Of a stretch of 35,832 bases of DNA, positions 7,939-34,000 are shown piece after piece; position 1 is the first letter of the stretch; each line of letters begins with the position of its first letter. The notes below the pieces were generated by a model that searched no databases, had not been told where the DNA came from, and saw nothing but the letters and a program-made list of their open reading frames with translations. The DNA is taken from assembly GCA_029879825.1 (NCBI GenBank), contig JAOUPL010000002.1, positions 1-35,832 of the forward strand, in the 5' to 3' direction. The DNA is from Candidatus Bathyarchaeota archaeon (lineage in GTDB: Archaea > Thermoproteota > Bathyarchaeia > Bathyarchaeales > Bathyarchaeaceae). Made by a program: the position numbers and the translations under genes.

Positions 7939-7982
7939 TCTTTCCCCATCCGAGCTGTAATAAATATGTTTAGAAGAAGACC

Positions 7983-8321: not shown

Positions 8322-8323
8322 TT

Positions 8324-8623: not shown

Positions 8624-8625
8624 TT

Positions 8626-17828: not shown

Positions 17829-18416
17829 ATGCAGGAAAAGGTTATAATAGGTATAGACTTGGCCGGAGTGGAAAAAAATCCAACCGGATGGGCTTTGTGG
17901 AAAAACAAATTTATCTCCACCTGTCATCTTTACGAGGATCAGGAAATCTTGGAGCATCTAACAAAGTTTGAACCAACCTTAATCACGATAGACGCCCCTC
18001 TAAGCCTACCTAAAAAGGGAACCATGAGAAAAGCGGACAGAGAAATGTATAGACAAGGATATCCGGTTTTTCCCCCACGTTTTCCAACCATGGAAAAGTT
18101 GACCTTACGCGCCATCAAAATAACTCAACAATTTAAAAGAGAGAAAGTACACATAATCGAGGTCCACCCAACATCCACCCGTAAGGCGCTAAAGATTCCT
18201 ACGAAAAATTGGAAAAGAATTCAAGGCATCTTCATACATATGGGTCTGAAAGGGGACCTAGAAACGCGTGCTTTAACGTCCCATGAGATTGACGCTGTAA
18301 CGGCGGCGTTAACAGGATATCTTTACCTGCAGGAAAAAACAGACTTAATAGGAGATGGAGAAGAAGGCTATATTGTTGTTCCAACGAAGGGAGACTGGAG
18401 GAGGCTGAAGTTGTGA
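17829..18416 (+). CDS. DUF429-family predicted nuclease (RNase H-like fold)
   Basis: IGIDLAG, IDAPLSLP, R.ADR, IEVHP and HEIDAV.AA motifs. Confidence 0.85.
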   Translation: MQEKVIIGIDLAGVEKNPTGWALWKNKFISTCHLYEDQEILEHLTKFEPTLITIDAPLSLPKKGTMRKADREMYRQGYPVFPPRFPTMEKLTLRAIKITQQFKREKVHIIEVHPTSTRKALKIPTKNWKRIQGIFIHMGLKGDLETRALTSHEIDAVTAALTGYLYLQEKTDLIGDGEEGYIVVPTKGDWRRLKL

Positions 18417-19954
18417 GTGAAGACGAGAGGCTTCAAAGAGCCGTTTCCTTCACGATAGCATCCGGCTATCAATTGAATAAAGAAGCCTTCGAGTTTTTGA
18501 ACACAATTTCTAAAACAGAAGACCCCCTCAGTTTGATGGAAGAAACCATCAGAAAAATCGAGGGTCTGCCTGAAAAACCGCTGTTCATAAATCGAAGTTT
18601 TCTGGAGGAGATGATGAAAGAAACGCTCCCTGAAGAGGAGAAGCCGTCTCCGCCTTTTTCTCCCTCACCTATCTTTGATGCGAGGAAAGTTTTTCGGGCC
18701 TATGCAAAAGACGTTGATGCTGACATAAAAGTGATTGACGACCCAACGGATAAAATCTGTACAACAGGATCTGTTGAGGAATATTTAGAATACTTTCAAG
18801 ATCGCTTCAAAAGAATGAAGAAAATTCTCAGAAGTAGGATAGACGCCAAGAACGCCATATCCATCTCAGAGGCTCTTAAGTTGTCAGTTAACTCAAAAGT
18901 TAAAATCATCGGCATGGTCACGGAAAAAAGAGAATCTAAAGGAAGAATCTTCTTGAGATTCGAGGATCTAGAAGCCAGCGTCACCGTGCTTGTACCCCAA
19001 AACGTAAGCAAAGAGGGCATGGCAAAAGCCCGGTCTTTGCTACTAGACCAAGTTGTTTGCGTAAGCGCCATAAAAGGAAGGAATGACCTGCTTATCGCAG
19101 AAGACTTCATCTGGCCAGATGTGCCTCAGAAAACCCCCCGCAAGGCTCCAATACCAGTCTACGCAGCTCTCATATCGGACTTGCACGTAGGAAGCAAAAT
19201 GTTTATGGAAAAGGAATTCAACCGATTTATGCTCTGGCTAAACGGAAAATTTGGAAACGAAAACACGCGGAACATAGCTGGCCACGTCAAATACGTAGTT
19301 ATCGCCGGCGATCTCGTGGACGGGATAGGTGTCTATCCAGGACAGATGAAGGAACTGGCGATAAAAGACATTTATGAACAATATCGAGAAGTGGCAAAAC
19401 TCATCGAACAAATTCCAGATTACATCGAACTAATAATCATACCGGGCAATCACGACGCGGCTCGAAAGGCGTTACCACAACCAGCCATACCGCGAAAATA
19501 CGCAGAACCGTTATACGAAGCGCGAAGGATGTACTCGCTAGGAAATCCTTGCACAGTTAGCCTCCACGAAGTGGAACTACTTCTATACCATGGGCGCAGC
19601 TTGGACGACGTCGCTGCTGTTGCTCCAAACGTAAGTTTCCAGACCCCAGACAAAGCCATGAAGCTCCTGTTGCAGAGCAGACACCTTGCGCCTATTTATG
19701 GAGAAAGAACTCCTATCGCCCCGGAAAACCGAGACTTCACAGTCATAGAAAGAGTACCAGATATCTTTCACGCCGGCCACGTACATGTACTAAAATGCGA
19801 CACATACAGAGGAACTCTCATAGTGAACTCAGGTGCTTGGCAGGGACAAACAGAATACCAAAAGAAGATGGGACTCGTTCCCACGCCTGGAATCGCGCCA
19901 ATCGTAAATCTCCAAACAATGCAAGTTGCAACCATCAATTTTACAGCATCCTAG
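18413..19954 (+). CDS. polB: DNA polymerase D small (proofreading) subunit DP1
   Basis: OB fold plus calcineurin-like motifs SDLHVGS, AGDLVDGIGVYP, PGNHD, YHGRS, RHLAP and GHVH. Confidence 0.96.
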   Translation: MSEDERLQRAVSFTIASGYQLNKEAFEFLNTISKTEDPLSLMEETIRKIEGLPEKPLFINRSFLEEMMKETLPEEEKPSPPFSPSPIFDARKVFRAYAKDVDADIKVIDDPTDKICTTGSVEEYLEYFQDRFKRMKKILRSRIDAKNAISISEALKLSVNSKVKIIGMVTEKRESKGRIFLRFEDLEASVTVLVPQNVSKEGMAKARSLLLDQVVCVSAIKGRNDLLIAEDFIWPDVPQKTPRKAPIPVYAALISDLHVGSKMFMEKEFNRFMLWLNGKFGNENTRNIAGHVKYVVIAGDLVDGIGVYPGQMKELAIKDIYEQYREVAKLIEQIPDYIELIIIPGNHDAARKALPQPAIPRKYAEPLYEARRMYSLGNPCTVSLHEVELLLYHGRSLDDVAAVAPNVSFQTPDKAMKLLLQSRHLAPIYGERTPIAPENRDFTVIERVPDIFHAGHVHVLKCDTYRGTLIVNSGAWQGQTEYQKKMGLVPTPGIAPIVNLQTMQVATINFTAS

Positions 19955-20519
19955 TGAGCCCACGAGCAACAAGTCTAGCCACCCTTATGGGTTCAGGAAC
20001 CCTGCAACAAACAGATGTAGCGCGGATCAACCTGCTCGCCCAGTTCATTTCGGCGCCAACAACCTCCACATAAACGGGCGGCTCAGCGGGCATCGAAACA
20101 ACTTCGTATACGGAACCAAGCTTCTCAAAGACCCTCCAGCGAATCCGCCAGTCTTCAAAATGCTGACGAAGGGCATTTTTTACAGCGATATTGTTTGGTT
20201 TCGTTCTCGAAATTACGATGACGGGGTTGCTGAACTCTTCGAAAACAATTGTGGGATCCACCAGATTGAAGCCTGCAAAAGAAACTCCCGCCAGCATAAC
20301 AGCGTCAAAAGACCATCGGTGCAGCATGGAGGTTAATTTCTCTGTAGCGTCCAAACCGTCTACGGTTATCATATCCGCTTGAAAATCGTTGATCCATTTT
20401 CCTCTTAGTAAAACACAAACGAAAAGGGCTTTCTGAATGCCACAACTTTGTAGTTTCCTAGAGAAACCTCCGTCTTCAACTCCTACTACCCGAAACTCCC
20501 GCCAAACATTTAGGGACAT
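19941..20519 (-). CDS. DUF99-family endonuclease V-like protein
   Basis: VGVEDG, ITVDGLDAT, GVSFAGFN.VD and VPEPIRVA motifs. The 5' end overlaps the cdc6 3' end. Confidence 0.85.
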   Translation of the reverse strand: MSLNVWREFRVVGVEDGGFSRKLQSCGIQKALFVCVLLRGKWINDFQADMITVDGLDATEKLTSMLHRWSFDAVMLAGVSFAGFNLVDPTIVFEEFSNPVIVISRTKPNNIAVKNALRQHFEDWRIRWRVFEKLGSVYEVVSMPAEPPVYVEVVGAEMNWASRLIRATSVCCRVPEPIRVARLVARGLTRML

Positions 20520-21726
20520 AATCAATCAAACGCCCGAGTCTATCGTCAGTAGTAAATACTTCTCTAATAAGACTGCGGCCGATACCCAAACGAATTTTTT
20601 TCGTACGTCCATATCGTCCCATGCTTACAACCCTCGCGTTCAACAAGCCTATCATGTCTAATTCGTTAATCAGACCACTAACCCGCCTCTGAGTCAGCGG
20701 AGAAAGGCCAAACTGATCGCAGAGTTCACAATAAATTTCATAAATGTCACCAGTGATGGCACAGCCAACTTTCGCCTTGCCCAACAGATAAACGCTGCAT
20801 AAAACCAATTTTGAGTATAAGGGGAGGTTTACCAAAACTTCTACAATTCGATCATGCTCAACCCTCTTCTCAGCCTGCCTTACGTGATCTTCAGTAACAC
20901 AGGACGATCCCTCCCGCTCTGCTAACTCGCCTGCAACGCGAAGGAGATCTAAGGCCCGTCTAGCGTCACCATGTTCCGCGGCAGCTAAGGCAGCGCACAA
21001 ACTTACAGCACCATCAAGAAGCACCCCCTCAAAAAAGGCCAGTTGAGCACGTTCCCAGAGGATGTCCTGAAGTTCAGCTGCGTCGTAAGGTCTAAAAACT
21101 ATTTCCTCCTCGCTTAGGGAACTCAAAACTCTAGGATCTAGAAACTCCTTGAATCGAAGGTCGTTTGATATCCCCACTATCGCGGTTTTACCGTGGCGAA
21201 GAGTTTCGTTTACTCGGGTTAATTCGTAAAGCAACACATCGCCCCGAACCTTTATTAGCGCATCGATTTCGTCAAGGACAACGATGAAAATATTTTTCTG
21301 TAAGTCCAATCCTTCTTTAAATCTATCAAAAACTTCTCCCACAGCCAAGCCCGTGAAGGGAACCTTCACGCCTAAGGCATCACATAAGCTTGAAAGGACC
21401 CTGTACTCTGTGCCAGCTAAGCGACAGTTTACATAACAAACCTCAACAGGAGCCCCCAATTCACTTGCTTTAACAGAAAGCCTGTTCAGCATATATTTCG
21501 TAGCTGCCGTTTTTCCTGTACCAGTTTTACCGTAGATAAAGATATTGGAGCATCGAGAACTTTTCAAAACAGGAGCAACTATTTCGCCCAGACAATTAAT
21601 CTGTCTCTCACGATGCGGAAGCTTGTCGGGAACATAATCGTGCCGCAGCACTTCCCTGTCCTTAAAAATATGAGTGCCCCTTAGAAATCGTTCAAAAACA
21701 TCATCGAGCACGTCGAGTTCGTCCAT
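20476..21726 (-). CDS. cdc6: Orc1/Cdc6 replication initiator
   Basis: LPHRE, Walker A GKTGTGKT, Walker B VLDEID, LDPRV.SSL, GDARRALDLLR and wHTH GRYGRTK motifs. Confidence 0.97.
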   Translation of the reverse strand: MDELDVLDDVFERFLRGTHIFKDREVLRHDYVPDKLPHRERQINCLGEIVAPVLKSSRCSNIFIYGKTGTGKTAATKYMLNRLSVKASELGAPVEVCYVNCRLAGTEYRVLSSLCDALGVKVPFTGLAVGEVFDRFKEGLDLQKNIFIVVLDEIDALIKVRGDVLLYELTRVNETLRHGKTAIVGISNDLRFKEFLDPRVLSSLSEEEIVFRPYDAAELQDILWERAQLAFFEGVLLDGAVSLCAALAAAEHGDARRALDLLRVAGELAEREGSSCVTEDHVRQAEKRVEHDRIVEVLVNLPLYSKLVLCSVYLLGKAKVGCAITGDIYEIYCELCDQFGLSPLTQRRVSGLINELDMIGLLNARVVSMGRYGRTKKIRLGIGRSLIREVFTTDDRLGRLIDYVPKCLAGVSGSRS

Positions 21727-21905
21727 ACAACAATCACCTACAGGTAAGTGCAGAGGTGATGCCTCAGTTTCAACTCCGACAGATAAAAACTCTCGTACAA
21801 AAAACTAGACGTACCACACACAAAAACAAAGAAAAACGACACTCTCTCAGCAAAAACAATTTGAAGCTGTTTTGTCGACGTAGGAGTCGACTCTCACACC
21901 CTCAC

Positions 21906-21927
21906 ACCCCTATATTTCTTCTGGAAA
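21906..21927 (-). promoter_or_regulatory. ORB element 1
   Basis: Minus strand reads TTTCCAGAAGAAATATAGGGGT, matching the TCCA...GAAA...GGGG ORB pattern. Confidence 0.8.
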
Positions 21928-22088
21928 TAAGTCTCGAAGAAATATGGTATGGCTATTCTTTTATAAGAATAAGTCTCCGCTTGGTTTTTGACTTTTCTAT
22001 ACTTAATGATTATTGTAAAAGACTTTTGAGTATATCCTACAAATTTTTATTTAAAAAGCCAGTCTACGTGTTGGTCACCAGTTCATGA

Positions 22089-22109
22089 GTCCAATGGAAA
22101 TAAAGGGGT
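22089..22109 (+). promoter_or_regulatory. ORB element 2
   Basis: GTCCAATGGAAATAAAGGGGT, close to the canonical ORB with G-string. Confidence 0.85.
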
Positions 22110-22332
22110 AGGAGTGTCAACTTTGACGGAGAATCCTGATGAAAAGACGCAAGTATGCATAACCTTACACTGGATACCTACGGTCAAGGGCAGCTTACAC
22201 ACTCTTTTAATGATTGTGTTAAACATTTAACTTGTTGTAGAATGTTGTGAAGTTAACTTCTAAATGCCTCCTTTTTTCCTCCTTTACTAGGAAAATTAAC
22301 TCCATTATGTGTCGTTGTGCGTTGAAATACGT

Positions 22333-22353
22333 CCCCTAGGCTTCTACTGGAAA
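22333..22353 (-). promoter_or_regulatory. ORB element 3
   Basis: Minus strand reads TTTCCAGTAGAAGCCTAGGGG. Confidence 0.7.
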
Positions 22354-22553
22354 AAGGAGTTCATCAACCGTCTATTCTCCATTTTGAGAAAGTAGGCCTA
22401 AGTGAAGTTTGTGAACCTAATAAACTGCAAATTTTCGTTGATTTCTGCTTTGCGTCGATTTTTCGGTTGTTTTATCGGCGCCCTCTTTACCGTAATTTCT
22501 ATAACTTGTGAAGTGTTAACTTGTAAAGACTTTCGGGGTCATGGGTGCATGGA

Positions 22554-22976
22554 ATGCCGGCTAGAAAAATGCGGGTGGAGATCTTCAACGGCAGCGGGGA
22601 CCGCTACACCATAACTTTTGAGGGCCAGGTGACGAGAGAAAAGGCTCTTCGCCTACTAGACCTCGTTGAGCTCTTAGGAGGTGTGCCCACGGGTAATCCT
22701 GGTTTGAATCGCCCCACATCCGAGTTGTCCAAAATTGACAAAATCCGCCTAGTCGTTGAAAAAAGTTTTCCAATCGGATGGTTTTCTTGTAGGGATGTTC
22801 AATGCACATATGAAGAAGAGTTTAAGGAACCCATCAGCCTGAGCACAGTTTCCACTTACCTGTCTCGAATGGCTGATCGCGGGGTCCTCACCAAAAGCAG
22901 GACTTCCAACCGCCGACGTTATAGGATCATGACTGAAGTGTCCAAAGTATCAAGTTTTATGAAAGATAATAAATAG
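22554..22976 (+). CDS. Origin-adjacent uncharacterised protein with C-terminal winged HTH
   Basis: Small N-domain, G/P linker, then wHTH-like ISLSTVSTYLSRMADRGVL...RRRYRI. Divergent from cdc6. ATG at 22554 preferred. Confidence 0.75.
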   Translation: MPARKMRVEIFNGSGDRYTITFEGQVTREKALRLLDLVELLGGVPTGNPGLNRPTSELSKIDKIRLVVEKSFPIGWFSCRDVQCTYEEEFKEPISLSTVSTYLSRMADRGVLTKSRTSNRRRYRIMTEVSKVSSFMKDNK

Positions 22977-23050
22977 CAGTCAGTTTTTATGATAAATGAC
23001 GTTTCGGTTCCGAATTAGAATCTTTGCATGTTTCTTGAGGGAGAACACAA

Positions 23051-24037
23051 ATGAGTAAAATAAGTGAGGACTTGGCAGAGATGAAGAAAAAACTTGGTGA
23101 ATATGTTAACAAGGGGCGCGTAATAGGTTTTCATGAAGTTAGGAAGGAGCCTGTTATAGCAGTTACGCCTGATAAGTCTAAAATAAAGCCTTTGAGAAAA
23201 ATGAAAAGTTGCGACGTACATTTCATGGCTGTAGACTGTTCAACGAGGACCTTGAAGAGGGCTAATAATTGGGGAATCTACCTATTTCGCACGGCATACG
23301 CTCTAGTGAGGAGACGCGACGTGCATTGGGACTACGAAGAGAGAATTCACACTGTAGTGGGGGATGCCTATGTACGTCGCAAGATATTGCAAGATGTTAG
23401 GCTTAATCTGGAAAGTGAGATAGCTTTAAGGTTGGTTCGTGATGCCGGTGAAAGTAATTACCTACTCCTAGATGGCGCTAGCTACTTTGGTGGAGAGAGA
23501 AAGTTCTGGGTGGAGTTATATGAAAAATGCAAAGAAGAAGGGCTCAAACTTTTAACAATAAGCAAGCAGTCTCCAATGCTTCATGATGAGAAAGGGCGGG
23601 ACTTGATGGCTGCGACGTGCATGCTTTCTCCTTCTTATCCGCTATGGGTCTACTACCCAGTCAAACCAGCAAACATACATGAACATCAGTATGGCGACGT
23701 ATCTATGGTCAAACTTAGTGGAGAAAGTCCACGCATTTTCCGATGCGATATAATGGAATATTTACGCAACTGTGAAATCACTGAGTTACTTTCTCCACTT
23801 ACCTTCGTATCAGAAGATCCTAGATGTCTTGGCTATCCAGTTACTCTTTGGCTGGCTCACGATTTTTCGACTCCATCCGACTCGATGCTTCTTCACTATC
23901 ATGATCAAGTTGAGGAAACGCTAGCCAGTGCCGGGTTGTTAAATGTACTTCGCGTTGAAGAACTCTCATGCAGCTTTCCAGACGAACTTCATGGGGTAAA
24001 ACACCCGTTTCAGCGGGAGTGGATTGAGCATGTCTGA
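23051..24037 (+). CDS. nurA: NurA-like 5'-3' nuclease
   Basis: MAVDCS, LLLDGA, ISKQS and GYP..L.LAH motifs of the NurA family; overlaps the downstream ATPase. Confidence 0.78.
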   Translation: MSKISEDLAEMKKKLGEYVNKGRVIGFHEVRKEPVIAVTPDKSKIKPLRKMKSCDVHFMAVDCSTRTLKRANNWGIYLFRTAYALVRRRDVHWDYEERIHTVVGDAYVRRKILQDVRLNLESEIALRLVRDAGESNYLLLDGASYFGGERKFWVELYEKCKEEGLKLLTISKQSPMLHDEKGRDLMAATCMLSPSYPLWVYYPVKPANIHEHQYGDVSMVKLSGESPRIFRCDIMEYLRNCEITELLSPLTFVSEDPRCLGYPVTLWLAHDFSTPSDSMLLHYHDQVEETLASAGLLNVLRVEELSCSFPDELHGVKHPFQREWIEHV

Positions 24038-25583
24038 GCCTGTAGGGTTTATTCGTGAGGTACGAGGGGATAAGGTTTCGTTCTTCCTTAATCGAGGAGT
24101 CAACCTTTCGTTTGGTCAGATGGTTAGAATAGACTCTGGCAACAGAAGCTTCTATGCCCGTGTGGTGGATGCCGGGAGTTGCTCTACATTAAAAACGGAT
24201 GAGCAACTTCGTGAAGCCGAAGGGAAGGAATCTTTTGGGCCTTACTCCAGCTATAGGCATGTTGACGCCATTCTTTTCCTTGAGAAGGATGCTGGAAGAA
24301 TTCGTTCTCCAACCTTTAATCCTGATTATATGGACAGGGTATACGCAACCAGTCAGGAAGACTATTCGGTTTTGAGGCTTGCAGGGGAGTTAGAGATAGG
24401 ACGTTTGCGTTCTGGAGAGCATGTGCTTGGCTCTGTAGGCATAAGTGTTGAAGCCATACCTTTGATGATGGGCATGTTTGGAATGACAGGCTCTGGGAAA
24501 ACGAATTGTGAATTAATGCTTAACGCACGGATCGTAGATTCTAGTCCAAGGACTGTCGGTCTAATTTTCGATTTTGCAGGTCAACTTCTAGAGGGAAAAG
24601 GAATAAGGCCTCAACAAGGTCTGCGGGATCATCCCCTTTTTCACACCAAGGTTCGCTACTACTCGGTTAGAGAACGGAAGATGCTTATTGGCTTGTATAC
24701 GATTCAACCCCAAAAACTTTACACATTTTTCCCCGACATAACCCATCATCAAGTCAGACTGGCTCATAAACTTTACAACAGATTGGGAAGCACTTGGATA
24801 GAACAGTCGCGAGAAGCCTATGGTAGAGACGGGTATAAAGGAGTGGCTGCGTTCACTGATTACAAAAGCAAAGCTGTGATAGATGCTCTTATGCTTAAGC
24901 TCTCCAGTTTATCCCCAGACCTCTTCCCGCCTTCTGACTACAGTTTTGTCGATGATGTGGTTCAGAATGTAAGTAAAGGCGTCACCTGTCTCATCGACAT
25001 TTCAGGAATCAGTTTTGAGGAGCAGCATCACGTGACTTGCCTTACTGCTTCTAGTGTGGCTTTCCACTACAAGCGGATGTGGGAAGGCAATTTTGAGGAG
25101 TGGAAAAAGCTTCCAACCCTCCTGATAACTCTTGAGGAGGCCCATGAATTCCTTGACCCCAACCTACCTAAAACCATATTTTCTGACATCGCCCTCACAT
25201 ACCGAAAGTATCGGGTCGGACTGAATGCTGTGACTCCGCGGCCTTCAAGAATAAACCCTAACGTCTTCGCCGAGCTTTGGACCAAGGTCATTATGAAGAC
25301 AGAATTGCGCCGCGACAGGGACTACCTTACCCAAAACACGCCCTACCTTGAATACAGCGACACCGAGATAAAAATGCTAGATGTTGGAGAAGCATTACTT
25401 ATCTCAGAACCGCAAATCCGATTCGCTGTTCCGATAAAGGTCATTCACTACCCTGACTACTTGGACGAGAGGGGACGGGTCGAATATGATTTGCCACCGT
25501 CAAAACCACTTTCTGAGATGGACGAAAAACTGAGGAGAATTCAGCAGGCTGGGAAGTCTCTCACTGCGAAAGGTGAAGGCTAA
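24030..25583 (+). CDS. herA: HerA-like ATPase/DNA translocase (FtsK-HerA superfamily)
   Basis: N-terminal beta-rich HAS-barrel-like region, Walker A GMTGSGKT, Walker B ITLEEAHEF, then RKYRVGL..VTPRPS and LDVGEAL. Confidence 0.82.
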   Translation: MSEPVGFIREVRGDKVSFFLNRGVNLSFGQMVRIDSGNRSFYARVVDAGSCSTLKTDEQLREAEGKESFGPYSSYRHVDAILFLEKDAGRIRSPTFNPDYMDRVYATSQEDYSVLRLAGELEIGRLRSGEHVLGSVGISVEAIPLMMGMFGMTGSGKTNCELMLNARIVDSSPRTVGLIFDFAGQLLEGKGIRPQQGLRDHPLFHTKVRYYSVRERKMLIGLYTIQPQKLYTFFPDITHHQVRLAHKLYNRLGSTWIEQSREAYGRDGYKGVAAFTDYKSKAVIDALMLKLSSLSPDLFPPSDYSFVDDVVQNVSKGVTCLIDISGISFEEQHHVTCLTASSVAFHYKRMWEGNFEEWKKLPTLLITLEEAHEFLDPNLPKTIFSDIALTYRKYRVGLNAVTPRPSRINPNVFAELWTKVIMKTELRRDRDYLTQNTPYLEYSDTEIKMLDVGEALLISEPQIRFAVPIKVIHYPDYLDERGRVEYDLPPSKPLSEMDEKLRRIQQAGKSLTAKGEG

Positions 25584-26290
25584 GCCATAGCTTCCCTCTT
25601 CTTCAGGATTTTCTGCATTTCTTCCTTTAGGCGGTAAGTATAGGGCATTTTATGGGTGTCTCTCTCCAAATAGCCGTCTTCATAAAGCTTTTTCATTAGA
25701 CGAGCAGTGTGCTCCCTCGTAAGTTTTATTTTTTCTCTGATTTCAGGCGCCGTTTTTTCACCCTCTTTGGCGATGGTTTCAAGCGCAGTTAGTTCGGTTT
25801 CTGTTAGCGGAGCCAAGGCTTTTTCCTTTTTGATGGGAATAGCCGCCTCTATTCTCGCTTCAGGCACTTGGACTTTATATTTTAGTTTTTCAACCTCCTC
25901 AATTCTTTGTACTATCTTATTTTCCGTCGCTTTTATGTCGTCAACTTTCTTGTTCATCTCCTCGATCTGCGTAGACAATTTCTGTTCAATTGCGGGGGCA
26001 TCTTCAACTATGTTGGCAAGAGTCGCTAATCGCTTATCGTATTCTTCTACCTTCTTCACAACTTTTTCGTTCTCGGAAGAAATTATCTCTATTTTATGGG
26101 TGACTGCACGGAGGCCAGCCGCTTGTCTTTGAAATTGTCTGTTGACGCTCATGGTGATGTCACCCACGGTGTTCTTTGCCTCTTCGTATTCCTCGTGAAC
26201 CCTTCTTATTCGCTTATAGTAAAGGGCAGACGCACCCATTGTGACAAGCAATAGGGCTGTTACAACTATTAGAAGAAGATAGGTGTACAC
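25580..26290 (-). CDS. Membrane-anchored coiled-coil protein with C-terminal winged HTH
   Basis: Hydrophobic N-terminal helix (YLLLIVVTALLLVTMGASALYY) followed by KRIRR, ~110 aa of E/K-rich heptads, then LTETELTAL...TAPEIREKIKLTREHTARLMKKLYEDGYLER. GTG start with a G-rich SD. Confidence 0.82.
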   Translation of the reverse strand: MYTYLLLIVVTALLLVTMGASALYYKRIRRVHEEYEEAKNTVGDITMSVNRQFQRQAAGLRAVTHKIEIISSENEKVVKKVEEYDKRLATLANIVEDAPAIEQKLSTQIEEMNKKVDDIKATENKIVQRIEEVEKLKYKVQVPEARIEAAIPIKKEKALAPLTETELTALETIAKEGEKTAPEIREKIKLTREHTARLMKKLYEDGYLERDTHKMPYTYRLKEEMQKILKKREAMA

Positions 26291-26364
26291 TAAGCCCCCT
26301 CCTCTAATCGTTTAGAAAAAACGAGACGCGCGTTGTAAGGTATAAAATACGGCGTTGACGCAAC

Positions 26365-26496
26365 TGTGATTCGAGTGTGATCCCTTGTGATCTGCATAAT
26401 GTGATCACACATCACATTATCGTATAGATGAACTTAAATTTTATGTTAGAATGGGGGAGAATAACGATAATCAAAATCGTGACATCACACGTCACA
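26365..26496. repeat. TGTGAT/ATCACA repeat clusters A and B
   Basis: TGTGAT at 26365, 26376, 26386, 26400; ATCACA at 26404, 26411, 26484; variants CGTGAC 26478 and GTCACA 26491. Confidence 0.85.
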
Positions 26497-26714
26497 ACAC
26501 GGCCGTAAAAACTCTGCGAGTTCAAAGGACCACATAAGCGTAACTTCTCTTCAACGTTGCTCATTCTTCCTCCATCTACCAAACTGAATCAATGCGAAAG
26601 ATGCTTTGTTTATTTAAAAGGGGCTCAAATTCGAGCTTAAATTACTGTGGTGCGTGTTTACCCTGTGAAGCATCCCAATTCTGGTACTGTGGGATTAATG
26701 CGTCGCGTCTCCGC

Positions 26715-26744
26715 TGTTATACGGTTGTGATTTGTGATATCACA
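26715..26744. repeat. TGTGAT/ATCACA repeat cluster C
   Basis: TGTGATTTGTGATATCACA at 26726-26744, plus variant TGTTAT at 26715. Confidence 0.8.
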
Positions 26745-27213
26745 GCTTTTCTGACATAGTTCTTGGTTTAGATAATTGTTCTAGACTCATTTTCAATTCT
26801 TCATGGAGCATGCTTATTATTCTTAAATGTTCATCTGTTGCTTTTTTCCCAAGGCCTCTATTCGCTTTCATGTAGGCTTGCAATTTGTTTGCAACTTCCA
26901 GATAGGGATCTAGGCGAGTATCCTCAAAAACTCCCAAATATCCTAGAAGAAGAATCGTGTAGATGGATTGAATGACGTTCCACCTAGCTTGCCTCAAAGT
27001 TCTGTTGAAAGCACCACGACTTACGGCTGAAAGCCTTAATCTGGCTTTTTCATCGTATTTTAATGACTTTCCGGATATATTCTCAGCCAAAATGTCAATT
27101 AAAAGTGTTTCTAACTGTGTTTTAGTCAAAATACTGTTTTTCGCTAGTGTTTTTACAATCGGGTCATCTAAAGAGCGTATTAACCATTTTTGCGCCTCCT
27201 CCTTCAAGCGCAA
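26740..27213 (-). CDS. Uncharacterised helical protein with probable HTH
   Basis: LTKTQLETL...YDEKARLR..VSRGAFNRTLRQAR resembles an HTH with recognition helix. TTG at 27213 follows a GAGGTG SD; the track start at 27291 is probably too long. Confidence 0.7.
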   Translation of the reverse strand: MRLKEEAQKWLIRSLDDPIVKTLAKNSILTKTQLETLLIDILAENISGKSLKYDEKARLRLSAVSRGAFNRTLRQARWNVIQSIYTILLLGYLGVFEDTRLDPYLEVANKLQAYMKANRGLGKKATDEHLRIISMLHEELKMSLEQLSKPRTMSEKL

Positions 27214-27247
27214 TATTTCCACCTCAGAGCAGTGTCTAGGGGATACA

Positions 27248-27271
27248 CTTTTGTATACAAGCATACAAAAG
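27248..27271. promoter_or_regulatory. Inverted repeat / putative operator upstream of the HTH gene
   Basis: CTTTTGTAT-ACAAGC-ATACAAAAG (9-bp arms), overlapping palindrome TTGTATACAA at 27251-27260. Confidence 0.5.
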
Positions 27272-27544
27272 GTTTGTGGTTTCTTCCTCAACGGGCCGTA
27301 TGCATTTGTTTAACTCAATACTGTGAAAATATACAAATATGAAAAAACTTTGTACGGAAAAAATCGAAGTAACAAAAAGACTCTTTTTTTTCAAACACTC
27401 TCAAAAACGATCATGGAGCATCATGGCCTTTGTTGTTCATTATTCTTTCTTCCTCACGCAATGTGTTTTGGTGTTATTCGTCTGGGTTAGAATTGCGAAA
27501 CTCACAGGGCTTGGTGGTCCCCCTCGTTGGGGAAAGGAAACGCG

Positions 27545-27700
27545 GTCACGTTTTGTCCTGTGACTCGAACGTGTGGCGATGTTACAGGTGTGATGGTATA
27601 TTTGAGAAAAATGACTTTAGGGTATGCTGATGGTGTGATTTTTTTCTGATCACAGGAAGATCACGTGTGATTGTCACAAATGTCAAAACCGTGATATCAC
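27545..27700. repeat. TGTGAT/ATCACA repeat cluster D
   Basis: TGTGAT at 27589, 27634, 27666; ATCACA 27649; variants GTCACG 27545, TGTGAC 27559, ATCACG 27660, GTCACA 27673; palindrome GTGATATCAC 27691-27700. Confidence 0.82.
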
Positions 27701-28033
27701 TTAGATGGAGAGCTCCCCTCTTTCAAGAAGTTCTTTCAATTCTCTCTCCACCTTCTCGTTCTTTCTAGGCGTTTCAAGCAATTGATGCACAGCATACCCA
27801 TCTTTTCGTAGGTCCGCCGTTAACGTCCTCATTTCAAGCTCTTGGGCGCGAATACTCGGATGCGTCTTCACGGTTGTGTAAACCCGTAGGATGTTTGCTA
27901 TGGTGGCCTCTTGAAAAATTAGAACTAGTCCGTTTTTCAGTTTCATAGAGATCCGCAGGTGCTTATGACCTTCCGGCACTCCTACCAATATTTTGTTCAC
28001 GTCCTCGTTGCGAATTATGCGAATTTTGTTCAT
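27701..28033 (-). CDS. Hypothetical protein, last gene of the nadE-nitrilase string
   Basis: 110-aa ORF starting 9 bp after the nitrilase stop; protein-like segments PEGHKHLR and FQEATIANI.R...VKTHP. Confidence 0.75.
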   Translation of the reverse strand: MNKIRIIRNEDVNKILVGVPEGHKHLRISMKLKNGLVLIFQEATIANILRVYTTVKTHPSIRAQELEMRTLTADLRKDGYAVHQLLETPRKNEKVERELKELLERGELSI

Positions 28034-28042
28034 GAAGGCGCC

Positions 28043-28876
28043 TCACAGTTTTTCTGCTTGTTCCCGTAAGGAATTGAATAGTTCGGGTCTTAAGTCGCGT
28101 AGTGTGGGCACAAAGGCTTCTGCGCGTTCCAAATCCGCGTAGTCGATGGTTCCTATGACTAGATCTTCTTCGTCGTAATTGGCTTTTGCAAGGATACTCC
28201 CGTCGGGGGCTATTATTCTGCTTCCCCCCCAAAATTGTAATCCATTTTCAACTCCAACGAGGTTCACGTAGGCTAGAAAAACAGTGTTTTCAAGAGCTCT
28301 CGCAGCAGTAAACACCTCAAAGAACCTGCTTCTCACAGCTGGCGAGGCTGATATGCAGACTATAAGTTGTGAGCCTTTCAATCTTAGCAAGCGGGATATT
28401 TCCGGGAAAAACATGTCGTAACAAATCGTCAACCCCATTTTTCCGATTTCTGTTTCGAAAACTGGCGCCTCGTATCCTAGTCGAAAATAGCGTTTCTCTT
28501 CAAAAACGCTGTGGGTTGGCAGATGCATCTTTCGGTACTTACCGATCAATCCGTCAGGACCCAACAAAACCGCTGTATTGTAGAGGACGGCGTGTGCCTT
28601 CTCGCTTTGTTCAGGCATTCCAAAAACTATGTATATGTTCTCTTTCTTTGCTGTCTCTTCCAAGGAGTAAATGGAAGAGCCTGGAATGGGCTCCGCCAAC
28701 TCATACGCGAGGTCCCGGTTTAAGTAGCCGGTTAATGAGAGTTCTGGGAAAATAACGAGGTTTGCGCCTTTTTCCTTTGCCCGTTTAATATTGTTCTTCA
28801 TGACGTTAATGTTGTGTTTCTTATCTCCAACTTTACAACTTATTTGTGCAAGAGCCACGTTAACTTTTTCTGGCAT
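28043..28876 (-). CDS. Carbon-nitrogen hydrolase (nitrilase superfamily)
   Basis: E-K-C triad: FPELSLTGY, YRKMHLP, ICYD. Also RALEN and GGSRII.PDG. Confidence 0.92.
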   Translation of the reverse strand: MPEKVNVALAQISCKVGDKKHNINVMKNNIKRAKEKGANLVIFPELSLTGYLNRDLAYELAEPIPGSSIYSLEETAKKENIYIVFGMPEQSEKAHAVLYNTAVLLGPDGLIGKYRKMHLPTHSVFEEKRYFRLGYEAPVFETEIGKMGLTICYDMFFPEISRLLRLKGSQLIVCISASPAVRSRFFEVFTAARALENTVFLAYVNLVGVENGLQFWGGSRIIAPDGSILAKANYDEEDLVIGTIDYADLERAEAFVPTLRDLRPELFNSLREQAEKL

Positions 28877-28920
28877 ACAGTCTCCCTCCTAGTTTAAATT
28901 TGCAGGGGTTTAGAAAAAGT

Positions 28921-29772
28921 TTAGTATGGTTTATGGGGAAGTCTGAAGTCTTTTCCAATGGTTCTGTATCCAAGTTTCGTTGTTAAAGGTAGTCGCCGCT
29001 TGTGTTCTGTGACTAGCCACCGTCTTTTAACGTCCTCAACGAGTTTTATGGGTAGCTTTAGTTGCTCGGCGATTTCTTTAGATTTCATAAAATGTTCTAA
29101 GCCGAACAGAATTAAATCTAGGGTCTCGTACTTAATGCCTAACTCTTTTTCTGCTAGTTGGTTTGGCCAAAGTCTAGGAGACGGAGGTTTCGCCACGATC
29201 TCGGCGGGAACACCTATATGTAGGGCCAGCTGCCTAACTTGAGTCTTGTAAAGGTCCATGATGGGTGAGATATCTGCGGCTCCGTCTCCCCACTTTGTGA
29301 AATACCCCACCATGATTTCAGACTTATCTGAAGCGCCGCACACTAGCCTGTTAAGTTTGTTGGCATAATAATACAGGTAAACCATTCTAATTCTCGCCTT
29401 TACGTTGCCCTTGCTAAGCTTGTCTGCGACATCATAAATTGGAAGAGATTGGAAGCATGCTTTCAATGTAGAGGAAATGTCAACTATCTGCAGATTGAAA
29501 TCGAATTTTTTTGCAAGAAGTTTTGCATGTTGAATATCGGTGACGTCGTACGTTTCCTCCTCGGGCATTGCGATACCTAGCACCTTATGACCTCCCAAAG
29601 AAAGGGAGGCGAGAGCCGCCGTTGCGGAACTGTCAAGCCCACCGGATGCCCCTAAAACTACCCCATCCGCTCCACATTTCTCCACGTAATCTTTGACGAA
29701 CCGCTTGATTCTGTTTTCAACTGATGGCAAGTCTAATTTTAGGACGTCACTCGTCAATTTCAACGTGCTCAC
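28921..29772 (-). CDS. nadE: NAD+ synthetase (single-domain)
   Basis: SGGLDS, GNVKARIRM, KSE..VGYFTKWGDG, DLYKTQV, KPPSP.L and EHKR motifs. Confidence 0.95.
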   Translation of the reverse strand: MSTLKLTSDVLKLDLPSVENRIKRFVKDYVEKCGADGVVLGASGGLDSSATAALASLSLGGHKVLGIAMPEEETYDVTDIQHAKLLAKKFDFNLQIVDISSTLKACFQSLPIYDVADKLSKGNVKARIRMVYLYYYANKLNRLVCGASDKSEIMVGYFTKWGDGAADISPIMDLYKTQVRQLALHIGVPAEIVAKPPSPRLWPNQLAEKELGIKYETLDLILFGLEHFMKSKEIAEQLKLPIKLVEDVKRRWLVTEHKRRLPLTTKLGYRTIGKDFRLPHKPY

Positions 29773-29942
29773 CCTGCATCTCTACTATTGAGTCCCCTCT
29801 TTAATAGCTCATATTTTTCTTCCATTTCTAGTTTCGTTAAATGCCGCGTTTAGGACAAATATTTAAGCCATTACGATGTACTTGGACACGTGTGGTTAAA
29901 GGTAGCAGCTTTAAATGTTATATTCATAACAGGGGACTTGAC

Positions 29943-30185
29943 ATGGGTAGAAGGCGAAGAAAAGTAGCTCGAATCCCTAAAACGAAGTTGCCCAAGGTTT
30001 ACCTATGCCCCAAATGTGGAAAAGAAGCAATTAGGGTTGAGATATCGCCAGGTAAAGAACGCGCTAGAGTGCGGTGTGGAAGTTGCGGCTTAACGGATGA
30101 ACTATCCATTAGACCTGCTTTTCGAGAAATCGACATATACTGTCAATTCACCGACAAATTCTACTCAAGAGCAATTAGTACCTAG
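29943..30185 (+). CDS. elf1: Transcription elongation factor Elf1
   Basis: MGRRRRK start, CPKC...CGSCG zinc ribbon and IDIY..F.D. True start is ATG 29943. Confidence 0.88.
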
Positions 30186-30196
30186 TGGGGTCATGC

Positions 30197-30943
30197 ATGG
30201 TTGGGCAAGTGGAAAAATATCTGCTAGAAAAGATTGAGGAAGAAGGAACTATTCATATTACTCTCATCGATCCCGAAAAGGTAACTCCCTCCTCCGCATC
30301 CCATATAGTTCATGACGCGGAATCTTGCCAAACAGCAGCTATTATGGTTGGCGGATCAACAATTGTTTCAACTTCCAATCTGGACAGTGTTGTAAAAGCG
30401 ATAAAAACGACAGTGAACATTCCGGTAATTCTTTTTCCCAACAACGTAACCGGCATTAGCAAGTACGCTGATGCCATATGGTTCATGTCACTCCTCAATT
30501 CATCAGATCCCTACTTTATTATAGGCGCCCATGTTTTGGGTGCGCCCATCATCAAGGAATTCGGTTTGGAACCCATTCCCCTTGGTTATATAATCGTGGG
30601 AGAGGGCAGTGCAGCCAGCGTCGTAGGAAAGGCTGTTCCAATTCCATACGACAAACCTGAACTTGCTGTCGCCCATGCCTTAGTAGCAGAGTATTTTGGC
30701 ATGCGCTTCGTTTACCTAGAGGCGGGATCCGGCGCCAAACAATCCGTGCCTAGCGAAATGATAAGAATGGTGAAGAGTATTATCAGTCTTCCCTTGATTG
30801 TAGGCGGCGGCATAAAAACCGGTGAACAAGTGAAAGAAGTAGTAGAGGCTGGGGCAGACATAATTGTGACAGGCAACGTTTTAGAAGAGTATGACGTGAA
30901 AGACAAAATCAGGGAACTAGTGAAAAATATGAAACGCCCATGA
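30197..30943 (+). CDS. Geranylgeranylglyceryl phosphate synthase
   Basis: TLIDPEK, MVGGST, FMSLLNS, YLEAGSGA, VGGGI and IVTGN motifs of group II GGGPS. Confidence 0.93.
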   Translation: MVGQVEKYLLEKIEEEGTIHITLIDPEKVTPSSASHIVHDAESCQTAAIMVGGSTIVSTSNLDSVVKAIKTTVNIPVILFPNNVTGISKYADAIWFMSLLNSSDPYFIIGAHVLGAPIIKEFGLEPIPLGYIIVGEGSAASVVGKAVPIPYDKPELAVAHALVAEYFGMRFVYLEAGSGAKQSVPSEMIRMVKSIISLPLIVGGGIKTGEQVKEVVEAGADIIVTGNVLEEYDVKDKIRELVKNMKRP

Positions 30944-31088
30944 GAGGATACACGAGGGGTCCTCAAACAGGAACCGTGTCAACTTTCATTTTTTTTGAAC
31001 TCACGAAGAGCCTTCTTCTCTTTTTATCTATTTTGTGTTAGAAAGACTCAATATCCGCTTCCGAGAATCGTAGTGAAGGAGGACGATT

Positions 31089-34000
31089 TTGGACATCGAG
31101 ATGAGCAAAGAGTATCAGCAATACACGGCTGTTTTAGAAAAAAGCCTCGAGAGCGTGTATGCTGTTGCAAGAAAGGCGAGAGAGAGGGGGCTAGACCCTG
31201 CCCTCAGTCCTGAGCCTGAAGTAGCGAAGGATCTAGCCGAACTCGTCGAAGGACTTGTTGGTCCTCCCGGAGTTGCTGAAAGTATACGAGATTTGAGCAA
31301 AAAGTTACCTCGAGACGAACTTGCTTTCAAGATTGCCGAGCAAATTGTTTATGGAAAATTTGGGCACATGGATGCACGTGAAGCAGCCGAGCAAGCGATA
31401 AGAACCGCCCTCGCCATATTAACCGAAGGAATTACTGCGGCTCCCCTGCAGGGTGTAGCGCGAGTAGCTGTCAAATCCAATCCTGATCGAACAAAGTATC
31501 TCGCAATTTATTACGCTGGTCCAATACGCTCTGCAGGCGGCACTGAGCAAGCCTTAACCTTGGTGATCGGAGATTTTGTTCGCCGCCTGCTCGGGTTGGA
31601 CCGTTATAAACCAACCGAGGAGGAGATTAGCCGTTTCATAGAAGAAGTGCGGTTATTTGAGCGGGCAGTAGCTAGATTTCAGTATCATGTTTCAGACGAG
31701 GAATTGAGAAGGGCTGTTCAGTTTATTCCAGTGGAAGTCACCGGCACAGAATCCGACCCAATTGAGGTTTCATCCTTCCGTAACCTACCTCGAATTGAAA
31801 CAAACCGAGTTCGAGGCGGGGCTCTTCGAGTTGTAAATGATGGGGTCGTGGGACGCTCTGCAAAAGTGTGGACGATCGTTGAGAAACTGGGACTCGAGGG
31901 ATGGGATTGGTTAGGAAGAATAAGGGAAATCGAGGAAAAAAGGACAGCTGGGTTTATGGAAGATGTCATCGCCGGCCGCCCAATTTTCTCATTTCCGTCT
32001 ACACGTGGGGGCTTCAGGCTTCGCTATGGGAGAGCAAGGAACACAGGCCTTGCAGCAGTGGGCATCCACCCCGCGACCATGATGGTTCTTGGAAACTTTC
32101 TCGCCGCAGGAACGCAACTGCGCATAGAAGGGCCTGGAAAAGCCGGAGTTGTTGTCCCTGTGGATACGATAGAACCCCCGGTTGTGCGTCTAAAAAATGG
32201 GTCCGTTGTCCGTGTTTCACTTCAAAATTTTAAACAAATCCAAAACGTGATTGACAAAATTCTATTTATTGGGGACATTCTCATCGGATTTGGCGACTTT
32301 TTATACAATAATAAACCTCTGCTTCCGTCTGGTTTCACCGAAGAATGGTGGCGTGAAGAGCTTCGCGCGGTCATCAAACAAGATTTTAACGGCAGTTTAG
32401 AAAAGGCTGCTGCAGCCGTCAAGATTCCCACCCTCCGTCTCGAAGGCATGTTAGGCGACCCGTTCAAAAACAAGCCAAGCGCCAAGGAGGCAATAGCGTT
32501 GTCTTCAACGTTCAAGGTGCCTCTTCATCCTTTTTTCACCTTTTTTTGGTCCAGCATTTCCTCTGAAGAGTTTCAAACGTTAAGGAAATGGCTCTTGAAT
32601 TCCGAAAGGCAAATCGACGCCAGTGTTGTCCAAGAAATAACTGGCGTGAAGAACGAAACGACAAAAGTTCTGCTTGAAAGAATTTTGGTTCCACATGAAG
32701 TCGTTGAAAACAAAATTAAGATAGAAAGCGATGAGGCGCACATCTTCGCTTTTTGCCTTGGGCTACACGCCCCCAAAACGACAGTTCATTCAAAAAGCGT
32801 TTTTGAAATCATGCAGAAACTCGCGGGGGTCCCTATCAGAAAAAAGGCTCCTACCTTTCTCGGGGCCAGAATGGGACGCCCAGAAAAGGCTAAGAGGCGA
32901 GAGATGAGGCCGCTCGTTCACGTCCTGTTTCCCGTCGGGTTGGCTGGTGGCTCTCGACGAAATCTTATAGCGGCGTTGAGCAAAGTTGCGATAGAAGTTG
33001 ACCTCGTTAAGCGTCGTTGTTTGGGGTGTAATGAGTTAACCTTCAAAGCGAAATGTCCTCGGTGTGGCGCAGAAACCGTTGTGGAGAAATTTTGCCCTAG
33101 ATGCGGGAGGCGTCTAAAAGAAAGTTTTTGTCCGGTTTGCAGGGTTCCAACGAGAAGTTACGAGAAACAATTGGTTAATCTTAAAGAGTTGATGGACGAA
33201 GCCTGCAGAAAGCTTAATCTTCCTATCCCTGAACTCGTGAAGGGTGTAAAGGGTTTAATGAATGAAACAAAGACGGCGGAAATCCTTGAAAGGGGGATTC
33301 TACGAGCGAAACATGATCTGTCTGTCTTCAAGGATGGGACAATACGGTTCGACGTTACAAACGCTCCATTGACGCATTTTAAGGCAACAGAACTCGGCGT
33401 GCCTGTTGAAAAGCTTCGGCAACTTGGCTACTCCTACGACTGCGATGGAAACAGCTTGACCGATTCTAATCAGGTATGTGAGCTTAAAGTGCAGGACGTG
33501 ATTATTCCGTTGAAGAGCGCAGAATACTTTGTTCGCGTTGCCAACTTTCTAGACGAGCTTCTAGAAAAGGTATACGCGCTTCCTCCATACTACAACATTA
33601 AACGAGTTGATGACTTGATTGGGCATCTTGTTGTAGGTTTGGCACCCCACACTTCCGTAGGCATCCTTGGGAGGATCGTCGGCTTTACTCGTCTAAATGT
33701 TTGCTATGCTCATCCTCTATGGCATTCGGCGAAGCGCAGGGACTGCGACGGCGACGAAGACACGCTAATGCTGGCTTTGGACACGATCTTGAGCTTCTCT
33801 AAATCTTATCTGCCTGCTCAGATAGGGGGAATAATGGACGCTCCGCTGTTCATCATCCCGGTGGTAAATCCATTGGAAGTGCAGCGGCAAGCTCATGAAG
33901 TCGATGTTGCTGCAACGTATCCATCCCTTTTTTATGAAAAAACTTGGCAGAAGGCAGCGCCCCAGAAAGTGAGCGGACTCATAGACCTCATTGAACATCG

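Follow-up and report, generated by a model that had tools for sequence, protein, structure and literature searches.

A membrane-anchored winged-helix protein and a soluble helical protein are encoded near the origin

The window analyzed here is the whole stretch of 35,832 nucleotides at positions 1–35,832 of contig JAOUPL010000002.1 (C101 in our numbering) of a Candidatus Bathyarchaeota archaeon (assembly GCA_029879825.1, our genome G000; 1,279,306 bases, 75.6% complete, 45% G+C), and the homologs of its proteins carry the source names Bathyarchaeota or Bathyarchaeia. It contains two co-oriented genes on the minus strand, gene A (25580–26290) and gene B (26740–27207), separated by intergenic region 1 (IGR1; 26291–26739, 449 bp), while intergenic region 2 (IGR2; 27208–27700, 493 bp with the corrected gene B start) lies upstream of gene B. 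Both spacers carry clusters of a short repeated half-site, and the two genes together with these clusters are referred to as the module. A preliminary description of this DNA had noticed two co-oriented uncharacterized genes, one of them encoding a transmembrane helix, a long coiled coil, and a winged helix-turn-helix (HTH); the sequence and a structure model confirmed this layout, the long helix being a probable coiled coil.

Gene A starts with a GTG codon preceded by GGAGGGGG and encodes a protein of 236 amino acids that is predicted to consist of an anchor, a long helix, a linker, and a C-terminal winged helix. A single hydrophobic segment (Kyte-Doolittle 19-residue mean 2.55) was found at residues 5–23, with KRIRR after it, and in residues 27–145 the heptad a/d positions were hydrophobic in 5–7 of 8. 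The AlphaFold2 model (predicted local distance difference test score, pLDDT, 83; 31-row alignment) gave a helix at residues 2–139, a low-confidence or disordered stretch at 140–163, and a winged helix at 164–235 in the order helix-helix-helix-wing. This C-terminal domain matched the Pfam families MarR (28.6 bits, cut-off 24.6) and HTH_27 (26.2 bits, cut-off 22.2), and its score against TrmB (25.0 bits) was marginally below the cut-off of 25.6, while the NCBIfam search gave no match above cut-off. Only four residues stand ahead of the membrane helix, so that no outside domain is expected, and the remainder after KRIRR is predicted to lie on the cytoplasmic side; neither sequence nor model contained an extracytoplasmic sensor, a ligand-binding domain, or an effector domain. 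The gene is present in one copy in its own genome, its 2415 homologs are nearly all 236 amino acids long, and its look-alikes in the ESM Atlas came only from Bathyarchaeota and Nitrososphaerota. The recognition helix, REHTAR.MKKL, was invariant in the alignment down to 26% overall identity, and it reads SREHTSRFMKKL in the A-like protein of Nitrosopumilaceae. In one genus (g9; G141 C1:607624–608373, as well as G084, G090, and G117), the match to A fell into two overlapping pieces within one frame of 266–278 amino acids, which suggests an insertion or rearrangement within the rod.

Gene B had been listed as an open reading frame (ORF) at 26740–27291, which is too long. The start TTGAAGGA was kept in an alignment of 20 upstream regions, the window having TTG at 27207, and in our reading of the alignment some relatives carry an in-frame stop ahead of it; gene B was therefore assigned to 26740–27207, encoding a soluble, all-helical protein of 155 amino acids. 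It is present in one copy in its own genome, and its 3262 homologs, typically of 157–158 amino acids, formed 229 clusters at 50% identity. Gene B matched no family in Pfam or NCBIfam, and among 50 members of its family no family recurred consistently; none of the 50 matched Sigma70_r4 or GerE, and DUF134 and HTH_16 appeared as single weak matches. No membrane segment was predicted, and no PDB sequence was matched at E ≤ 0.7. The structure model (pLDDT 91.7; predicted template modeling score 0.81) was all-helical with a C-terminal helical hairpin, and its comparison with 48,161 PDB representatives yielded middling scores in a list dominated by generic matches to the hairpin at residues 94–155. 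The ESM Atlas returned look-alikes only from Bathyarchaeota and Nitrososphaerota, and the middling scores agree with a neighboring cluster there that has Sigma70_r4 on 14% of its members. The predicted N-terminal domain may resemble sigma-70 region 4 or a LuxR-type HTH, and B can be called an HTH protein with moderate confidence. Thus, the soluble HTH-like partner of the preliminary description retained its solubility and, at that confidence, its HTH, whereas its listed start was wrong. In a run without controls, a predicted complex of A (residues 25–236) with B had a score of 0.00 and a mark of 0.32, and it is evidence neither way. Gene B defines an HTH-like family that has so far been without annotation.

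TGTGAY half-sites are clustered around genes A and B

The repeated half-site reads (T)GTGA(T/C) and occurs in both orientations (TGTGAY/RTCACA). Within the module, GTGAY was found 12 times in IGR1, 10 times in IGR2, and 4 times in the coding sequence of gene A, with none in that of gene B. The longer TGTGAY occurred 34 times in the window, 17 of these in the two spacers and again none in the gene B coding sequence; TGTGAT occurred 23 times, 14 of them in the two spacers, whereas shuffled versions of the window contained 14.1 in total on average. With a cluster defined as at least four TGTGAY within 150 bp, the 900 occurrences in the genome formed clusters only at 26365–26491 (eight sites; Poisson P = 9e-14) and 27559–27673 (six sites; P = 4e-10).

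Inspection of the module distinguished four clusters. Array A (26365–26417), with six to seven TGTGAT/ATCACA half-sites 3–14 bp apart, was kept in 20 of 20 aligned modules of 1.4 kb each. In the sense of the gene it lies directly downstream of a promoter-like box (26423–26442, minus strand) that reads AAAAYTTAAGTT and then a CTTATATA-like, TATA-like hexamer, putatively the transcription factor B recognition element (BRE) and TATA box of gene A, so placed that array A extends over the expected transcription start and the 5′ leader. Site B′ (26478–26497; TGTGACGTGTGATGTCAC) is a composite of two direct half-sites 7 bp apart and one inverted half-site, and site C (26726–26744; TGTGATTTGTGATATCACA) is such a composite in the opposite orientation that overlaps the stop codon of gene B. 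Array D (27545–27700) comprises about ten GTGAY and ends in GTGATATCAC beside the stop of the upstream ORF; it lies ~340–490 bp upstream of gene B and has no promoter-like box of its own. The motif-rich spacers of the preliminary description were thus recovered in their lengths and clusters, but the motif forms four clusters, one of them on the gene B stop codon, and the gene B promoter has a different palindrome.

The composite TGTGAY-N-TGTGAY-(0–1)-RTCACA is common to site B′, site C, and the start of array A. Its direct pair, TGTGAYNTGTGAY, has three copies in the genome, all in the module. Three near-complete genomes of relatives (G081, G141, and G008) contained three composites each, all within ~0.8 kb of gene B, while G144 had two near gene B and one elsewhere, G020 had none, and the reversed-pattern control gave 0–1. 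As a universal marker for A the composite was rejected, being absent from the A-less genomes (0/5) but present in just one of five distant A-containing ones.

Conservation was assayed in a close set of 19 loci from named Bathyarchaeia genomes, with gene A identities of 49–91%. TGTGAY clusters were found at the same two places in 19/19 loci, and three loci had one further cluster each, at the gene B 3′ end (site C) or beside the CN-hydrolase gene. In the alignments, half-sites and the promoter-like box were nearly invariant and the DNA between the clusters was poorly conserved. The 20 modules contained a mean of 21.2 half-sites per 1.4 kb, i.e., 15.2 per kb vs. 2.5 per kb outside the module in these loci, and the half-site spacings peaked at 5, 7, and 10–11 bp. 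The B–A spacers of Nitrosopumilaceae (125–170 bp) likewise held 5–7 GTGAY half-sites, one of them on the B stop codon (GTGATA), and in loci L041 and L043 an ATCAC-N5-ATCAC pair stands just before A.

Locus L024 (G007:C15) has 3.3 kb without long ORFs between a HypF gene and gene B (6200–9750). This region consists of about three degenerate direct duplications of 1.0–1.2 kb with a TGTGAY cluster in each, making five clusters over 6 kb, and is a lineage-specific amplification of an array-bearing unit.

A different palindrome precedes gene B

A palindrome of the form ATACA-N4-TGTAT (GGATACAC-TTTTGTATAC; 27241–27258), termed the B-box, was found ~35 bp ahead of the start of gene B. It is unrelated to TGTGAY in sequence and is the sole match in the window even when three mismatches are allowed. 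Of 40 loci, 39 had the relaxed form ATACR-N4-YGTAT in the 140 bp upstream of B, L028 being imperfect, vs. 17 of 1950 random 161-bp pieces, and this form was retained in loci without A. L041 and L042 carry an exact B-box (ATACAGATTTGTAT) directly before the B-like ATG and after a TTTAAAGTTTAA box, and L043 has in the same place, directly before the B-like ATG, a variant that is one base off (ATACCGTTTTGTAT). The B-box lies between a TATA-like box and the start codon, where archaeal repressor sites are classically found, and judged from its conservation and place it is probably the operator of gene B.

As for a wider regulon of B, the genome contains two copies of ATACA-N4-TGTAT vs. ~2 expected by our own estimate, and in five relatives the extra copies were at control level; none was found before the Elf1, geranylgeranylglyceryl phosphate (GGGP) synthase, and PolD-DP2 genes of the window. 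The second copy (G000:C129:404–417; L040) agrees with the B-box in 13 of 14 bases and lies in a 55-bp divergent spacer between ORFs that, as read from their translations, are amidotransferase-like and adenylosuccinate-lyase-like; this copy could mark a second target of B or have arisen by chance. In G141 (C9:426326–426357), two B-box palindromes stand 18 bp apart at a place remote from gene B. In addition, TTTTGTATAC and GTATACAAAA form an inverted pair (27263–27275 and 27241–27250) with a spacer of 4–13 bp in the taxonomic order of the window, which could represent two divergent TATA boxes or an extended operator.

The module belongs to a conserved replication gene island

From gene A toward the origin, the window contains NurA and HerA (23051–25583, plus strand), a small winged-helix gene encoding 143 amino acids (22545–22976, plus strand), an 818-bp origin region with an AT-rich center (21727–22544), and cdc6/orc1 (20476–21726, minus strand; Pfam scan), the small winged-helix gene being on the origin flank opposite to cdc6. 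Three origin recognition box (ORB)-like elements (TCCA..GGAAA..GGGG; ~21903–21927, ~22089–22111, and ~22333–22355) are visible in the origin region, by comparison with the ORB consensus.

In 19/19 close loci, B and A were followed by convergent HerA and NurA and then, where the contig reached, by the winged-helix gene, the origin, and cdc6. Among 151 Bathyarchaeia genomes, 106 of them high-quality, B was found in 126 (96 high-quality) and A in 108 (80 high-quality), with both in 105. The two genes shared a contig in 100 of these 105, and in the other five they were split over contigs of fragmented assemblies. Their start-to-start distance was ≤1.2 kb in 68 genomes, 1.2–4 kb in 31, and 7.4 kb in one. 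All of six loci inspected with a distance of 1.2–4 kb, which come from several families, had a HypF carbamoyltransferase gene between B and A (L021, L024, L025, L027 [Pfam-confirmed], L031, and L032), and an HTH_3+CBS gene adjoins A in L024 and in L031, where it was Pfam-confirmed.

A diverse set of 20 Bathyarchaeia loci was then drawn from 19 different families. An A-like ORF was present in 13 of them, and L038 had a weak match. cdc6 lay within 10 kb of B in 14 of these 20 loci, in 16/16 close loci whose contig reaches, and at ~2 kb from B in 3/3 Nitrosopumilaceae genomes. NurA and HerA had no match in the 20 diverse loci or in five loci of other classes; being confined to the 19 close loci, the pair is an insertion of the window's taxonomic order, and the earlier suggestion that HerA could serve as a motor is not supported. 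Without this insertion, gene order gives the older arrangement as cdc6, origin, winged-helix gene, A, and B.

In the phylum as a whole, the B profile matched 103 of 201 sampled genomes, families of other classes included. Three complete genomes of family f31 carry, in this order, genes for a B-like protein of 138 amino acids and an A-like protein of 199 amino acids with membrane helix, rod, and winged helix, then a winged-helix gene, an ORB origin, and cdc6. We infer that this family is Nitrosopumilaceae, because sources call the 3839 homologs of its A-like protein winged-helix or MarR regulators and assign them to Nitrosopumilus, N. maritimus among them, and to Nitrosarchaeum. In L041, the island extends from the PolD large subunit and GGGP synthase genes, ahead of B, to the PolD small subunit gene behind cdc6; B directly adjoins A, with no ORF of at least 70 amino acids in between, and elsewhere HypF and HTH-CBS were the sole insertions. 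The replication islands of the window (18413–34499) and of L041 (1144–10232) follow one order, namely PolD-DP2, GGGP synthase, B, A, the winged-helix gene, the origin, cdc6, and PolD-DP1, to which the lineage of the window has added NurA-HerA, a 110-amino-acid ORF, CN-hydrolase, NAD synthase, Elf1, and Endo_dU. On this comparison of gene order the module is ancient and common to Bathyarchaeia and Nitrosopumilaceae. Both genes, the arrays, and the cdc6 linkage, whose joint occurrence in relatives had been proposed as a check of the preliminary description, were accordingly found together in related Bathyarchaeia and in Nitrosopumilaceae.

A is the best-supported candidate for binding the arrays

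In the diverse set, nine of the 13 loci that have an A-like ORF carried TGTGAY clusters, vs. none of the six that lack A, and L038, with its weak match, carried none either. The A-less loci keep B and mostly also the winged-helix gene and cdc6. Because the clusters co-vary with A and not with B, binding of the TGTGAY arrays by A is the best-supported assignment that the sequences suggest, in which the invariant recognition helix of A would match the invariant half-site. By analogy only, it is plausible that a TrmB/MarR-type winged helix reads GTGAT, since TrmBL1/Tgr bind TATCAC-N5-GTGATA in the Thermococcales glycolytic motif, with repression when the site follows the TATA box, according to passages of PMC4158304. 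Of the idea that the membrane protein, alone or via the HTH protein, binds the arrays, the first form is therefore favored; B as an adaptor on the same arrays is not supported, in view of its own conserved palindrome and its persistence in families where A was not found.

The reading that we prefer, with a probability of about 0.5, has A bound to the arrays, where it would repress its own promoter and hold origin-proximal DNA at the membrane, with B as a separate autoregulator. The first ~23 residues of A would anchor it in the cytoplasmic membrane, with nothing outside the cell, and a rod-like, probably coiled-coil helix of ~17 nm (our own estimate for 115 residues) and a flexible linker would carry the winged helix to the half-site TGTGAY. 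The four clusters would offer it sites over 1.4 kb, i.e., at the promoter and leader of gene A, another 70 bp upstream, on the gene B stop codon, and ~400 bp upstream of B, and from the spacings of 5, 7, and 10–11 bp, several A dimers would be expected side by side, which suggests cooperative loading. Self-repression of A is expected because array A lies after the TATA-like box. As each bound A molecule would be fixed in the membrane, the DNA segment 1–5 kb from the origin and cdc6 would be held there, and looping between arrays D and C, which bracket gene B, may also occur. B would act as a soluble dimer and autoregulate through its palindrome ATACR-N4-YGTAT, placed after the TATA-like box and ahead of the start codon. 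Membrane proximity of the array DNA thus follows from the predicted architecture of A, and to that extent the earlier proposal that the origin region is held at the membrane is retained, whereas a role in segregation was not supported.

Several observations weigh against this reading. A was not found, with B kept, in five sampled families (f8, 0/3; f17, 0/3; f20, 0/7; f21, 0/5; f19, 0/3), and it is therefore dispensable there. Four A-containing loci (L021, L023, L032, and L036) had no cluster at the threshold, L036 having four GTGATA in 156 bp, and the contrast of 9/13 vs. 0/6 overstates its own weight because the diverse loci are related and not independent. Exact matches to the composite numbered 0 in the distant A-containing genomes G140, G131, G031, and G046 and 1 in G047; as the heptad composite is specific to the window's taxonomic order, the absence of clusters elsewhere covers its own assembly and near relatives only. 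The A-like ORF of L044 (family f38, on the Nitrososphaeria side) has 149 amino acids and almost no rod. Array D has no obvious regulatory target and is explained by membrane pinning or looping alone.

Alternative explanations of the module

The alternative that survives best, possible but clearly less probable than the preferred reading, takes A as a membrane-sequestered transcription factor, either a reader of the envelope state or a proteolytically released one, that controls only itself and B, e.g., by looping, with the closeness of the origin being inherited synteny without mechanical meaning. In addition to the overlap of array A with the promoter, the bracketing of gene B by arrays D and C, the five families in which A was not found, the lack of a motor gene in the module, and a winged helix of the MarR/TrmB regulator type all agree with it. 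However, A has no sensing domain, given the four residues ahead of its membrane helix, and ~20 half-sites in four clusters far exceed the need of an autoregulator. Array D is 340–490 bp from any promoter-like box, and the place in the replication gene island was kept across two classes. Moreover, uncleaved A would still put the bound DNA at the membrane.

An extension in the opposite direction, which we hold to be unlikely as a whole, makes A a direct origin-to-membrane tether and the module a motor-less centromere system of Bathyarchaeia and Nitrososphaeria, with B as a timing regulator. Membrane-fixed A dimers on the four arrays would form a membrane-attached nucleoprotein patch 1–5 kb from the origin, and the replicated copies would be parted or positioned by membrane growth or the division machinery; the replicon model of Jacob, Brenner and Cuzin is said to part replicated copies by membrane growth. 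B would be an autoregulated, origin-linked cell-cycle regulator that is kept where A is lost, and in Nitrosopumilaceae the B operator adjoins the divergent GGGP-synthase/PolD-DP2 genes. The tether part is plausible. The segregation part, as put forward in the preliminary description, is not supported: no ParA-type ATPase was found among the 29 window ORFs scanned with Pfam, in agreement with what that description had noted of ParA/SegA, array A at the A promoter fits plain autoregulation, and A was not found in the five sampled families.

That the TGTGAY arrays are bound by B, the small winged-helix protein, or Cdc6, while A has another target, is improbable. As this requires, B and the small winged-helix gene lie close by in every case, but the arrays were missing in 6/6 A-less loci that keep B and, in most cases, also the winged-helix gene and cdc6; in addition, B has a different conserved palindrome and the ORB elements are unlike TGTGAY.

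Still less probable is that the spacers encode RNA, the motif being a hairpin of a leader or 3′ untranslated region, an attenuator, or a small RNA. GTGAT/ATCAC pairs are able to form hairpins, and site B′ scored as a terminator-like hairpin in a sigma-70 promoter/terminator scan, which is not meaningful for an archaeon. One RNA-library contig from a relative covers 26436–26811, the gene B 3′ end and IGR1, a weak point as DNA carry-over is possible; the single run, covered as contigs that contained a small share of the query words, gave relatives' pieces over A, B, and IGR1 and none over IGR2, and this non-coverage is uninformative. On the other hand, 26200–27800 gave no Rfam match up to E = 1, the half-sites are nearly invariant in spacers that are otherwise poorly conserved, they occur in both orientations with 7 and 10–11 bp phasing, and array D precedes the B promoter box. 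Finally, a remnant plasmid or virus partition or regulatory cassette, with the GTGATATCAC copies at 26734 and 27691 as its ends, would account for the fact that GTGATATCAC occurs just twice in the genome and flanks gene B and IGR2, but it is very improbable in view of the same gene order in the core replication island of two classes, the single-copy and near-universal genes, the unremarkable composition, and the lack of an integrase or tRNA target nearby.

Comparison with known systems

Chromosome placement and separation in archaea other than Sulfolobales are, to our knowledge, largely unknown. In bacteria, RacA/ram with DivIVA (sporulating Bacillus subtilis), PopZ-ParB, and HubP tie origin-proximal DNA to the cell envelope. 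RacA is soluble, anchored by DivIVA, and has ~25 sites over hundreds of kb. Like RacA, A combines a DNA-binding HTH with a coiled-coil-like rod, and its putative sites are origin-proximal; unlike RacA, it has its own predicted membrane helix and site clusters confined to ~1.4 kb, whereas anchoring of the RacA/ram type has many sites dispersed over the origin-proximal region. ToxR and CadC are single-pass membrane regulators that act on DNA from the membrane, with an N-terminal OmpR-type domain and a large periplasmic sensor. A resembles them as a predicted single-pass membrane protein with a cytoplasmic DNA-binding domain, but differs in its reverse topology, its long rod, and the lack of an outside domain. 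The protein logic is thus closest to RacA/DivIVA-type anchors and to ToxR/CadC, and it lacks a defining feature of each.

The site architecture is closest to the operator-centromeres of plasmid partition systems. As presented in passages of PMC9499535, the 7-bp WATCACW heptads bound by Omega (ParB) at parS of pSM19035 stand in mixed orientation over its own promoters and serve as operator and centromere. The module likewise has short iterated direct and inverted sites with 7-bp phasing and an ATCAC core over its own promoter, in runs of 2–3 heptads vs. the 7–10 contiguous ones of pSM19035. In the same account, Omega has a ribbon-helix-helix fold and the ParA ATPase Delta as its partner; A, in contrast, combines a winged helix with a predicted membrane anchor, and no ATPase gene accompanies it. 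Of the features of ParABS types I–III, iterated sites beside or over its own promoter are present in the module, while no adjacent ParA, ParM, or TubZ gene was found among the 29 window ORFs, and the MarR-type winged helix of A is neither a ParB-HTH nor a ribbon-helix-helix; the fold of A and the absent ATPase exclude membership in the partition systems. The archaeal SegAB of Sulfolobales, as described in parts of PMC12139799, pairs the site-specific SegB with a ParA-type SegA, and its sites beside its own operon are a proposed centromere. The module is like it in having an archaeal DNA-binding protein with sites beside its own genes, and unlike it in having no ParA-type ATPase gene.

With TrmBL1/Tgr, A shares a TrmB-type winged helix, and the same hexamer occurs in the arrays. 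According to the passages of PMC4158304 used above, these proteins are soluble sugar sensors that have an effector domain and act genome-wide on inverted repeats spaced by N5, whereas A has no effector domain, and no regulon was found outside the locus in its own assembly and near relatives. The soluble-dimer layout of MarR/TrmB proteins, where the winged helix is flanked by N- and C-terminal helices (MarR) or by an effector domain (TrmB), also differs from A, in which the winged helix is formed by the last 72 residues, after the membrane helix, a 115-residue helix, and a linker. The module is rated as a membrane-bound, site-specific DNA-binding protein, as predicted, with operator-centromere-like arrays. 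Literature searches returned no description of it (supplements were not covered, and one query was distorted by "MarR"/"marrow"), and a term search of a 2024 review on the archaeal cell cycle (PMC7617429) found no passage on a DNA-membrane tether in the text that it reached.

The module thus couples a sequence-specific DNA-binding domain directly to a predicted membrane anchor, and it does so as a single-copy pair placed among the PolD subunit genes, cdc6, and the ORB origin of the core replication island, from sediment Bathyarchaeia to marine ammonia oxidizers. Whatever its exact role, the prediction is that a defined origin-proximal DNA segment is placed at the membrane, and as the cultured N. 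maritimus has an orthologue, this is directly testable. The two new cis-elements and the gene B family should be useful for annotating two abundant archaeal classes.

Other features of the locus

The small winged-helix protein has 128–143 amino acids and a C-terminal winged helix, with weak Pfam matches to Penicillinase_R, Cdc6_C, and PaaX. Its gene adjoins the ORB origin opposite to cdc6 in the examined cdc6-containing loci of Bathyarchaeia and Nitrosopumilaceae, except L022 and L033, and has its counterpart in L041 at 6739–7125; the protein is a candidate origin-associated factor. On the other side of the module, the 110-amino-acid ORF (27701–28033, minus strand) has no Pfam or NCBIfam family, and neither it nor the small winged-helix protein had an NCBIfam match above cut-off. 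L001–L003, the closest loci, are the only ones with this ORF upstream of array D; in L020 it adjoins B. Beyond it follow CN-hydrolase and NAD synthase, then Elf1 and GGGP synthase, and the PolD large subunit (PolD-DP2; 31089–34499, plus strand), while at the other end of the island the PolD small subunit (PolD-DP1; 18413–19954, plus strand) is separated from cdc6 by a gene of the Endo_dU family. Further away, a tRNA of 108 nt was identified by Rfam (15695–15802, minus strand; 47.3 bits) and not reported by ARAGORN, and it probably carries an intron.

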